From: an uncultured Candidatus Saccharibacteria bacterium | GTDB taxonomy: Bacteria; Patescibacteriota; Minisyncoccia; Sungbacterales; HO2-52-23 | Direction of reading: 5' to 3' | NCBI GenBank assembly: GCA_964585475.1 | Contig: CAZPDF010000002.1 | Location: 1,631-65,630, forward strand | DNA: 64,000 bases | Part shown: in pieces, positions 1 to 473 of the stretch | Numbering within the stretch: the first letter of the stretch is position 1 | How the letters are laid out: each line of letters starts with the position of its first letter | Position numbers and translations under genes: made by a program | Notes under the pieces: model-generated | The model's database searches: none | What the model was told of the DNA's origin: nothing | What the model saw: the letters and a program-made list of their open reading frames with translations, nothing else

Positions 1-240
1 GTCGTATGGGAATTAATTTCTTTTGCGGACAGATATATAAATGAAAATAAACCGTGGGAATTAAGTGGTGAGGCGCTTCAAAAAGTTATCGTAAACGCGA
101 GCTATCTCATCGGCGCTATTTCGAATCTGCTCGAACCGTTTTTGCCGGAAACCGCAGAAAAAATCCGTGAGCAGATTTCGTTTGAAGATTCTGTGATAAA
201 GATCAAGAAGGCAGAATCGTTATTTCCTCGGTTAAAATAA
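1..240 (+). CDS. metG: methionyl-tRNA synthetase, C-terminal fragment (5' end outside window)
   Basis: Frame-1 translation ...DRYINENKPWELSGEALQKVIVNASYLIGAISNLLEPFLPETAEKIREQISFED...* resembles the MetRS anticodon-binding/C-terminal region; stop TAA at 238-240. Confidence 0.55.
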   Translation, partial: VVWELISFADRYINENKPWELSGEALQKVIVNASYLIGAISNLLEPFLPETAEKIREQISFEDSVIKIKKAESLFPRLK

Positions 241-473
241 ACCCCGCACTAATTTTGCGAGTTTGGCGTTGGCGATCCGCTTCGCCCTTAAGGGATGGGG
301 CTATTCGCCCCGCGCGGATCGCGAGAACATTTTTGCGATTTACCTAACCATAGCAGGGGTCCTAGTATTCTGCGGCAAAATTAGTGCGGGGTTCTGTTAT
401 TTGTTGCTAAATTTTCTTCGCCTGGCGTCTTGAAAATTTAGACAAATAACGAAAAAGCGGGAACGTGTTCCCG
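240..473. repeat. MITE-like palindromic element, CCCCGCAC-TIR family. TIRs at 240-258 and 375-393; adjacent IR module at 394-451 and hairpin at 456-473; inverted orientation relative to the copy at 43075
   Basis: 5' arm aaccccgcactaattttgc and 3' arm gcaaaattagtgcggggtt are reverse complements flanking about 115 bp; followed by ttatttgttgctaaatttt...aaaatttagacaaataa IR and gcgggaacgtgttcccgc hairpin. The same modules occur at 43075-43306 and 19293-19512. Confidence 0.6.

Follow-up and report, generated by a model that had tools for sequence, protein, structure and literature searches.

Does the hairpin-forming repeat that recurs along this stretch of bacterial DNA represent a mobile element, a structured RNA, a binding site for a host protein, or a set of ordinary terminators? 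The stretch (hereafter the window) comprises 64,000 nt of contig CAZPDF010000002.1 (positions 1,631–65,630; assembly GCA_964585475.1) from an uncultured Candidatus Saccharibacteria bacterium. The organism is of a Parcubacteria type, and the proteins most closely related to its own carry the label Candidatus Sungbacteria. The genomes of the Patescibacteria, also known as the Candidate Phyla Radiation (CPR), are tiny and densely packed, and knowledge of their non-coding DNA is sparse. The initial annotation, which was made from the sequence alone, had described the repeat as a family similar to MITEs (miniature transposable elements with inverted repeats). Our analysis favors, with somewhat better than even confidence, a non-autonomous, structure-dependent, hairpin-forming interspersed DNA repeat of many CPR lineages that is moved in trans by an enzyme encoded elsewhere.

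The six copies first listed are all present, namely four full-length copies (240–393, 19358–19512, 28749–28897, and 43156–43306; about 150 nt each) and two others (8995–9121 and 48604–48719). Their terminal motif occurs far beyond chance: with up to three mismatches allowed, ACCCCGCACTAATTTTGC has six matches in the window, which form three inverted pairs, compared with 0.04 expected from shuffling. The closing stem (ACCCCGCAC...GTGCGGGGT) has arms of 18–19 nt, and these arms are 100% complementary in three of the four full-length copies (240–258/375–393, 19 nt; 28749–28766/28880–28897 and 43157–43174/43288–43305, 18 nt each). The stem at 19359/19510 has one bulge (A) and one G.T pair. The four full-length copies, with 51–65% identity, are old and diverged.

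The full-length unit (148–154 nt) is a three-way junction that consists of a closing stem, an inner arm termed the A-domain, and a variable arm. The closing stem has 17–20 bp and a conserved foot, (A)CCCCGC...GCGGGG(T). The A-domain (about 50 nt) includes a 9-bp covarying helix around GCTTCGCCC-n4-AGGGAT and a covarying hairpin of 4–5 bp with the invariant loop CTATTCG. A closing stem surrounds this motif in 85 of 124 instances, at either of two fixed offsets that define two size-matched classes. The A-domain forms the first or the second inner arm, and in about half of the second class an inverted paralog (A') occupies the first slot, which produces a palindromic layout. An nhmmer profile of the inner block matches exactly four window copies, two per strand, with E-values from 1e-13 to 5e-11. 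On the plus strand, element 1 begins right after the TAA of the ORF (open reading frame) that ends at 239 and has its A-domain at 270–326, followed by the variable arm; the A-domain of element 4 is located at 28780–28834. On the minus strand, element 3 (a class II copy located 35 nt upstream of folD) has its A-domain in the second slot (19389–19444), and element 5 (A-domain at 43222–43276) lies 5 nt from the stop codon of a minus-strand helicase (Mfd-like) ORF. The interior block that the initial annotation had regarded as shared is real in only these four copies. It is missing or degenerate in the copies at 8995–9121 and 48604–48719, both of which retain the stem.

The helices covary strongly. 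Among 64 distinct A-domains, 91% of the cells are paired and 156 cells have changed on both sides, compared with 43 ± 5 in shuffled controls (0 of 500 reach 156) and at most 26 with slid partners. A single position in the A-domain helices takes as many as four Watson-Crick pair types, and G.U is nearly missing there; the stems are almost purely Watson-Crick, with G.T at about 1%. The closing stem covaries as well. Exceptions recur at pair 4 (A.G) and at pairs 6–8 (C.A or A.A), and its mismatches include 27 C.A versus 6 G.T. Inverted termini occur throughout; within what had been described as terminal inverted repeats (TIRs), sequence conservation is limited to the outer ~8 bp (CCCCGC.C) plus a TTTTGC block, and the positions between them covary. 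On either strand, the window copies form much better folds than shuffled sequences (z of −5.6 to −6.0). The covariation-supported model is recovered by the DNA fold of copy 5 and, for copy 1, by the minimum-energy fold of its minus strand. The blocks GCTTCGC, AGGGA, and CTATTCG are essentially invariant among the copies retrieved, which is in part a consequence of the retrieval itself, whose pattern requires these blocks.

This pattern, GCTTCGCNC-N3-5-AGGRA-N4-6-CTATTCG, was used to scan 185,579 species (one genome per species) and identified at least 119 inner-block loci. Among the matches listed, about 105 come from metagenome-assembled genomes (MAGs) labeled as Patescibacteria, Parcubacteria, Saccharibacteria (a label that may be loose on third-party assemblies), Paceibacterota, or many "Candidatus ...bacteria", and have the same architecture as the window copies. 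The 12 non-CPR matches among those listed have no stems and are located in coding DNA, and chance alone would yield about that many. Rather than being local, the family extends to a large share of the lineages of Patescibacteria, and its structured core is highly conserved; a plain selfish-MITE picture does not account for this combination. The motif had no match among 2.9 million viral contigs. In searches against Rfam 15, only a tRNA passed the gathering threshold, and no match over the conserved domain of the elements was found at E-values up to 10. No description of the family was found in the literature on palindromic repeats, MITEs, structured RNA, or REPINs in Patescibacteria/CPR/Saccharibacteria; the family is apparently undescribed.

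Among the matches listed, the neighboring genes mostly encode ribosomal proteins, SecY, Adk, EF-G, NusG, and GroEL, and elements are found directly upstream of the genes for GroEL, L27, L11, S8, S14, S3, L35, GAPDH, NusG, and 16S rRNA. In two Patescibacteria MAGs (loci L062 and L079), full-length elements lie in the rRNA operon leader, about 40–60 nt upstream of the 5' end of the 16S rRNA. Orientation is evenly divided in the ribosomal-protein operons, where the A-domain is on the operon strand in 12 of the listed cases and on the opposite strand in 12, and the SecY-Adk spacer contains the element in both orientations in different genomes. Over all matches listed, the ratio of same to opposite orientation is about 51:33, an approximate count because the crude ORF calling is noisy. 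A replication-strand bias was considered and rejected: judged by eye, the GC skew is uniformly positive along the window, and copies occur on either strand.

Near-identical copies and filled or empty sites both point to mobility. Among the matches listed, three MAGs contain 3–5 copies each at 88–99% identity, and the best between-genome pair has 81% identity. The near-identity is restricted to 160–285 nt, and the remainder of each 8-kb locus is unrelated. For one trio of copies, similarity stops exactly at ACCCC...GGGGT, without a flanking duplication and with differing companion hairpins (see below). Moreover, the empty-site comparison that the initial annotation had proposed revealed presence/absence polymorphism in Sua5, HIT, and HisRS genes, the SHMT-FolD junction, and the HisRS-HIT spacer. 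The Sua5 site W|PGP is filled in 9 of 24 orthologs (56–71% identity) and empty in the rest, a second site is filled in 4 of 24, and further hairpin inserts occur at other positions in other Sua5 orthologs. At the HIT site, two orthologs carry a CCCCGCAC-type hairpin, five a CCCCGTTAGA-type hairpin, and one a short hairpin, and most orthologs are empty; two different hairpin subfamilies are thus represented at one site. The insert in HisRS and the element in the HisRS-HIT spacer are both missing in a syntenic relative (L127). For SHMT-FolD, the syntenic junction of a relative has no spacer, and the spacer in the window is 1.1 kb long and includes the composite of element and adjoining hairpins described below.

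Target-site duplications, another check proposed initially, flank three short-form insertions when filled and empty sites are compared at the codon level. These are TGGC-CC-[70 nt]-CC-GGT in Sua5 (CC or CCCG), CATCT-GG-[67 nt]-GG-AAGCC in HIT (GG or TGGA), and GGC-TT-[element]-TT-GTATAGG in L024 relative to L017 (TT or CTTG). The three full-length copies with exact ends have none. Of the MITE-like description, the repeated, non-coding, and hairpin-ended character stands; the limited TIR conservation and the lack of a target duplication at these three full-length copies make the element an atypical MITE. The proposal of a non-autonomous mobile element is borne out by the dispersed near-identical copies in other genomes, the filled or empty orthologous and syntenic sites, and the 2/4-bp duplications at short forms. 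Furthermore, at L024 (4396–4460) and L086 in one MAG, a CCCCGTTAGAG-type hairpin is nested between the full-length element and the neighboring hairpin, and the sister copies L017 and L092 are empty there. In the MAG CAZDKA, identical 57-nt hairpins (ACCCTGTTAAATAgcgcttcgcgctaattttgcggagcaaaatTATTTAACAGGGT) are found at three loci (L049 and L106 among them), and each appears to nest the inner closing stem in a new stem.

Six copies proved to be an undercount, as an inverted-repeat scan of the window identified nine further relatives with a CCCC(G/C)... foot. Four of these are in-frame within intact ORFs (one in HIT, two in Sua5/YrdC, and one in a HisRS-like gene), each interrupting a Pfam domain with extra residues, so the claim that all copies sit just downstream of stop codons is incorrect. 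The forms inside genes are short and hairpin-only (24–101 nt), and the full-length form is intergenic. In Sua5/YrdC, a 70-nt relative (GCCCCGTTAGAGAC...GTCTCTAACGGGGC; 14766–14835, plus strand) encodes ...APLETARPEGPSGAQARARSLTG... and corresponds to the CC (or CCCG) duplication and the empty site in orthologs. The same ORF contains a mini CCCCGCAC hairpin (ACCCCGCACC-loop-GGTGCGGGG; 14889–14918, plus strand; encoding PHQSKLGAG), which is the insert present in 4 of the 24 aligned orthologs. The HIT gene has a hairpin-only member (48987–49053, plus strand) with 21-nt perfect arms (ACCCCGCACCTTTTGTGGACT) and the loop GCGCTTCGCGC..., which is translated as PAPFVDCASRGDSHLVHKRCGV and flanked by the GG (or TGGA) duplication at the site that is empty in most orthologs. 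In the HisRS-like ORF, a hairpin relative (CCCCCCACCTTCTC...GAGAAGGCGGGGGG; 48024–48124, plus strand) belongs to an extra segment that is missing entirely in the syntenic ortholog of L127.

The remaining members vary in what they retain. The degenerate copy at 8995–9121, located just after glmS, has kept the stem (GCCCCGTCACTAAATTTTGAC.../...GTCAAAATTTTAGTGCGGGGT), and its interior contains only a GAATAAG remnant of the A-domain loop. The variant hairpin at 48604–48719, in the HisRS-HIT spacer, has 32-nt arms at 94% complementarity (...GCCCAGCACTTATTCTAC...). A hairpin-only relative at 25626–25690 has 21-nt perfect arms (ACCCCCACACCTATTAAACGC) and a loop that includes GCGAAGC, and it is followed at 25757–25886 by a relative with 20-nt arms at 95% (ACCCCGCC...GGGCGGGGT) and an unrelated interior. 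Further relatives are found at 57941–58069 (ACCCCGTTAGAAG-type arms, 19 nt, 84%), upstream of the ribonucleotide reductase gene at 58190–58323 (21-nt perfect arms, GCCCCCACACCTATTTTGAAC), and downstream of it at 62485–62587 (CCCCCCATCTATTTTAC/GTAAAATAGGTGTGGGG arms).

The initial annotation had also assigned three copies to a composite three-module unit. The order of a GC hairpin, an AT-rich inverted-repeat module, and the element is confirmed at 43074–43306 and 19238–19512, as is its inversion at 240–474. However, the GC hairpin is the terminator of the neighboring gene rather than a module of the repeat, and the AT-rich module, or companion hairpin, differs between otherwise near-identical element copies and therefore lies outside the recently copied unit. 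The companion hairpin directly adjoins the element, at the same end in all four full-length window copies (397–449, TTATTTGTTGCTAAATTTTC...GAAAATTTAGACAAATAA; 19293–19357; 28901–28956, GAAAGGACT...AGTCCTTTC, into which the 3' end of the convergent topA ORF with its stop at 28920 extends; and 43100–43155), and in most copies from other genomes; overall, 8 to 10 of every 10 copies have it on this fixed side. The outer arms of the companion covary, and CGCTTCGCTC is a frequent loop sequence. In many loci, the unit spans from the upstream stop codon to the downstream ATG, with the ATG within an arm of the companion hairpin. A promoter within the companion hairpin was rejected, as only loose −10-like hexamers occur 8–11 nt before the ATG and the consensus scan gave no consistent match.

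True terminators, which are GC hairpins followed by T-runs, are separate from and adjacent to the elements, in agreement with the initial view that the repeats are not simple terminators. One such terminator-like hairpin (457–474, minus strand) belongs to the convergent minus-strand ORF at 497–769, another (19238–19256, plus strand) to an upstream ORF, and a third (43074–43096, plus strand) to the ORF at 41436–43055, all outside the repeat; the terminator scan of the window also identified one near element 4 (28659–28676). All four full-length window copies lie past a neighbor's terminator or face a convergent gene. In the same scan, the elements' closing stems lack a following T-run, with one weak exception in copy 1, on its minus strand.

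Under the favored interpretation, an enzyme encoded elsewhere would act in trans to copy or move the unit as DNA, and what it recognizes would be the fold, probably that of a single strand, and not a long terminal sequence. Such recognition of the fold would explain why covarying arms occur beside a fixed foot and fixed A-domain loops. Both the passage through a folded intermediate and the nature of the partner enzyme are our inferences from this pattern. The element would land in intergenic spacers in either orientation, often filling the stop-to-start space, with highly expressed operons preferred. Hairpin-only derivatives with internal deletions would also enter genes, where they may survive only in-frame and would then be translated as loop insertions.

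Several observations weigh against this interpretation. No target-site duplication of 1–4 nt, including TA, is present around the three near-identical full-length copies with exact ends. Since full-length copies have no duplication and the short forms do, two different mechanisms may be involved. The near-identity within genomes could partly result from gene conversion rather than transposition. As had been noted initially, the window contains no transposase, and no transposase domain was found by Pfam in its 50 ORFs; likewise, no recurrent non-housekeeping gene was found in the at least 119 loci of 8 kb (2,190 ORFs in all-against-all clusters). The only nuclease-like gene near an element is a PD-(D/E)XK_3 family nuclease ORF (31077–31463) between topA and dprA, and nothing ties this nuclease to the repeats. 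In addition, co-directional copies are in modest excess (34:16 between co-directional genes, based on crude ORF calls), and the enclosure of the downstream start codon by the companion hairpin in many loci would suit a leader RNA. The phylum-wide invariance of the blocks, part of which follows from the retrieval pattern, is greater than is usual for selfish DNA and may point to a role in the host or to a partner that is itself very conserved. Finally, the C.A pairs would be G.U on the opposite strand, which may leave room for an RNA.

The strongest alternative, which we consider unlikely, is that the element is a functional structured RNA, either a cis-acting mRNA module (processing/stability punctuation, or translation control via the companion hairpin) or a multi-copy small RNA. 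The strong helix covariation around invariant loops, the conservation across the phylum, and the strong enrichment in ribosomal-protein operons with a companion hairpin whose right arm holds or abuts the ATG are all in its favor, as is the excess of C.A over G.T mismatches, given that C.A corresponds to G.U on the complementary strand. The block AGGGAUGU may resemble a GGA-type protein-binding motif. However, the even division of orientations in ribosomal-protein operons and the use of the SecY-Adk spacer both ways conflict with a strand-specific transcript, as does the location of every full-length window copy past a terminator or facing a convergent gene. G.U is nearly missing from the covarying helices, no Rfam match was found, and near-identical dispersed copies together with in-frame coding insertions are the behavior of mobile DNA. 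On balance, a structure-dependent DNA repeat is favored over a strand-specific RNA by four findings combined: G.U pairs are almost missing, some copies have the palindromic A'-A layout, insertions occur in coding sequence, and some genomes show recent bursts. An RNA or host-factor role retains some probability in view of the C.A excess, the modest bias toward co-directional copies, and three short blocks that are extremely conserved.

More specific RNA candidates were also considered. A riboswitch or 5'-leader was rejected on account of the 12:12 orientation in operons and the contexts in the window. A short ORF starting at the AUG of AGGGAUG was rejected, as its frame shifts between the 4-bp and 5-bp hairpins and it has no spacing from a putative Shine-Dalgarno sequence. 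None of the twister, hammerhead, pistol, T-loop/tRNA-like, K-turn, SRP, and attC structures appears to fit the element (compared by eye).

A less probable alternative, which we regard as rather doubtful, follows proposals made for REP/BIME: the element would be a domesticated DNA site with a binding or architectural role for a conserved host DNA protein (a nucleoid protein, topoisomerase/gyrase, or a factor of replication or segregation), and it would spread mainly by recombination. Strand-symmetric use, invariant short blocks in a palindromic frame, the perfect stems still present in the old and diverged window copies, and the enrichment at highly transcribed operons would all be compatible with such a site. 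However, the analysis yielded no candidate protein, the covarying long stems argue for intrastrand folding and against duplex recognition, and in-frame coding insertions with duplications as well as recent bursts are unexpected for a purely host-maintained site. Finally, that the copies are ordinary Rho-independent terminators or mRNA-stabilizing hairpins that became alike by convergence is highly improbable and already contradicted by the data: several copies do follow stop codons and copy 1 does have a T-rich run after one arm on its minus strand, yet canonical GC hairpins with T-runs stand separately beside the elements, the long stems of most copies have no T-run after them, a 50-nt inner domain is homologous in about 105 of the loci among the matches listed, and copies also occur within ORFs and directly upstream of start codons.

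Beyond the structure-dependent DNA repeat that we favor, a speculative proposal, which we advance tentatively, is that the element is the substrate of an undescribed CPR-wide system. A conserved host enzyme or ribonucleoprotein would read the folded three-way junction (the CCCCGC foot plus GCTTCGCCC/AGGGAT/CTATTCG), and this would serve either copying via single-stranded DNA into hairpin-adjacent sites of highly transcribed operons or intercistronic punctuation in either orientation for transcript processing or control of translation start. Such punctuation, if true, would matter in a phylum with very little classical regulation. More generally, if the element acts in gene expression, it would constitute a phylum-specific regulatory or processing device. 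In any case, it is a sizeable unannotated component of these genomes that occupies the space between stop and start codons in operons for ribosomal proteins, chaperonin, and rRNA and that seeds insertions in the reading frame of essential enzymes. Artifacts in gene calling and protein length can result from it. It is also a convenient marker for strain typing and insertion-polymorphism studies and provides a handle toward the recognizing protein.

Other features of the window are separate from this family. A second, unrelated hairpin repeat (GTCATYCTGAGCGnAGCGAAGRATC...GCTCAGGATGAC) is found at 1084–1145, 4875–4940, and 63799–63866, and two of its copies are in-frame, one in a TatD ORF (peptide SSHSERSEESKEILRVAQDD) and one in a leucyl-tRNA synthetase (LeuRS) ORF (VVILSEAKNLDRSFGLSPQDD). 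The LeuRS ORF (1755–5462; 1235 aa) has alpha/beta-hydrolase and NUDIX domains between its synthetase domains, based on Pfam. The ribonucleotide reductase ORF (58366–62244) includes an apparent LAGLIDADG-type intein of about 400 aa between the two catalytic halves (inspection of the translation by eye). A 300-nt direct repeat with 99% identity (37555–37854 and 39623–39922) is located upstream of two adjacent ORFs (37875–39587 and 39943–41436) that have no Pfam match. Arrays of short repeated or palindromic motifs (AAATCCGAA, TGCGAAT, GTGGATT, TACGAA/TTCGTA, and AAACTCTAA) are found in intergenic regions at 44770–44863, 47050–47125, 48730–48815, 49243–49322, 52582–52707, and 54081–54167, and may be operator or promoter arrays. 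Similar GCGAA-type repeats are present in the syntenic HisRS-HIT spacer of L127. A perfect 48-bp palindrome (17075–17122) and two long hairpins with AT-rich arms of 20–21 nt (15996–16118 and 62260–62386) are outside both repeat families.

Among known repeat systems, integron attC sites were rejected: the termini here are ACCCCGC...GCGGGGT, not RYYYAAC...GTTRRRY, the flanking housekeeping genes are about 10 kb apart, and no integrase was found in the window. The element resembles classical MITEs in being short, non-coding, and dispersed in multiple copies (four full-length and about 10 related copies in the window). It appears to differ from them in its only partly conserved termini and in the lack of target duplications at full-length copies with exact ends (2/4-bp duplications flank short forms), and no cognate autonomous insertion sequence (IS) with the same termini was encountered among the 50 window ORFs examined by Pfam or in the at least 119 loci of 8 kb. 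Correia repeats of Neisseria are likewise small, abundant, TIR-bounded repeats that are often located right upstream of genes and form long RNA hairpins when transcribed (PMC10969869). They have conserved 26-bp TIRs, a TA target duplication, sigma-70 promoters, and an IHF site (PMC10969869), whereas no such TIRs, TA duplication, consistent promoter match, or IHF site were found for the element here.

ERIC sequences share with the element an imperfect palindrome of similar size, an intergenic location in either orientation, high conservation across genera, and occasional intragenic copies (PMC10969869). However, the sequences are unrelated, ERIC has neither covarying arms with an invariant inner domain nor a constant companion hairpin, and the taxonomic span of the family described here is much wider. 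The Rickettsia palindromic elements (RPEs) are about 150 bp long, have no known transposase, comprise several subfamilies, and are found in-frame and translated in unrelated housekeeping genes (PMC10969869). The in-frame palindromic repeats in HIT, Sua5/YrdC (twice), and HisRS-like genes, with intact ORFs and with orthologs that lack the insert, are alike in this behavior. In contrast to RPEs, only short hairpin-only derivatives are found in genes here, and the family is spread over many lineages of a phylum rather than within a genus; the host phyla are unrelated.

REPINs and REP sequences are mobilized by RAYT transposases, which are Y1 enzymes similar to those of IS200/IS605 (PMC3116915, PMC3337134). 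Like the element, REPINs are units of about 100–150 nt that form a long hairpin in single-stranded DNA or RNA, whose ends are conserved, whose spacer is less so, and in which compensatory changes are frequent (PMC3116915, PMC3337134). Differences include the arms (e.g., ACCCCGCACTAATTTTGC), which are not self-complementary, unlike REP palindromes, the extra conserved three-way-junction domain with its invariant loop, the copies inside genes, the short forms with 2/4-bp flanking duplications, and the host phylum. Single-stranded DNA "peel-and-paste" elements (IS200/IS605) are not expected to produce target duplications, and the full-length copies here likewise have none. No RAYT or Y1 gene was seen in the 64-kb window or in the at least 119 loci of 8 kb. 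Because the element appears to lack defining features of REP-palindrome/RAYT systems, Correia repeats, and classical MITEs, it is not filed under any named family. It is a variant of the palindromic interspersed repeats, and with its non-autonomous nature and long persistence within a lineage, it works most like REPINs (PMC3116915).

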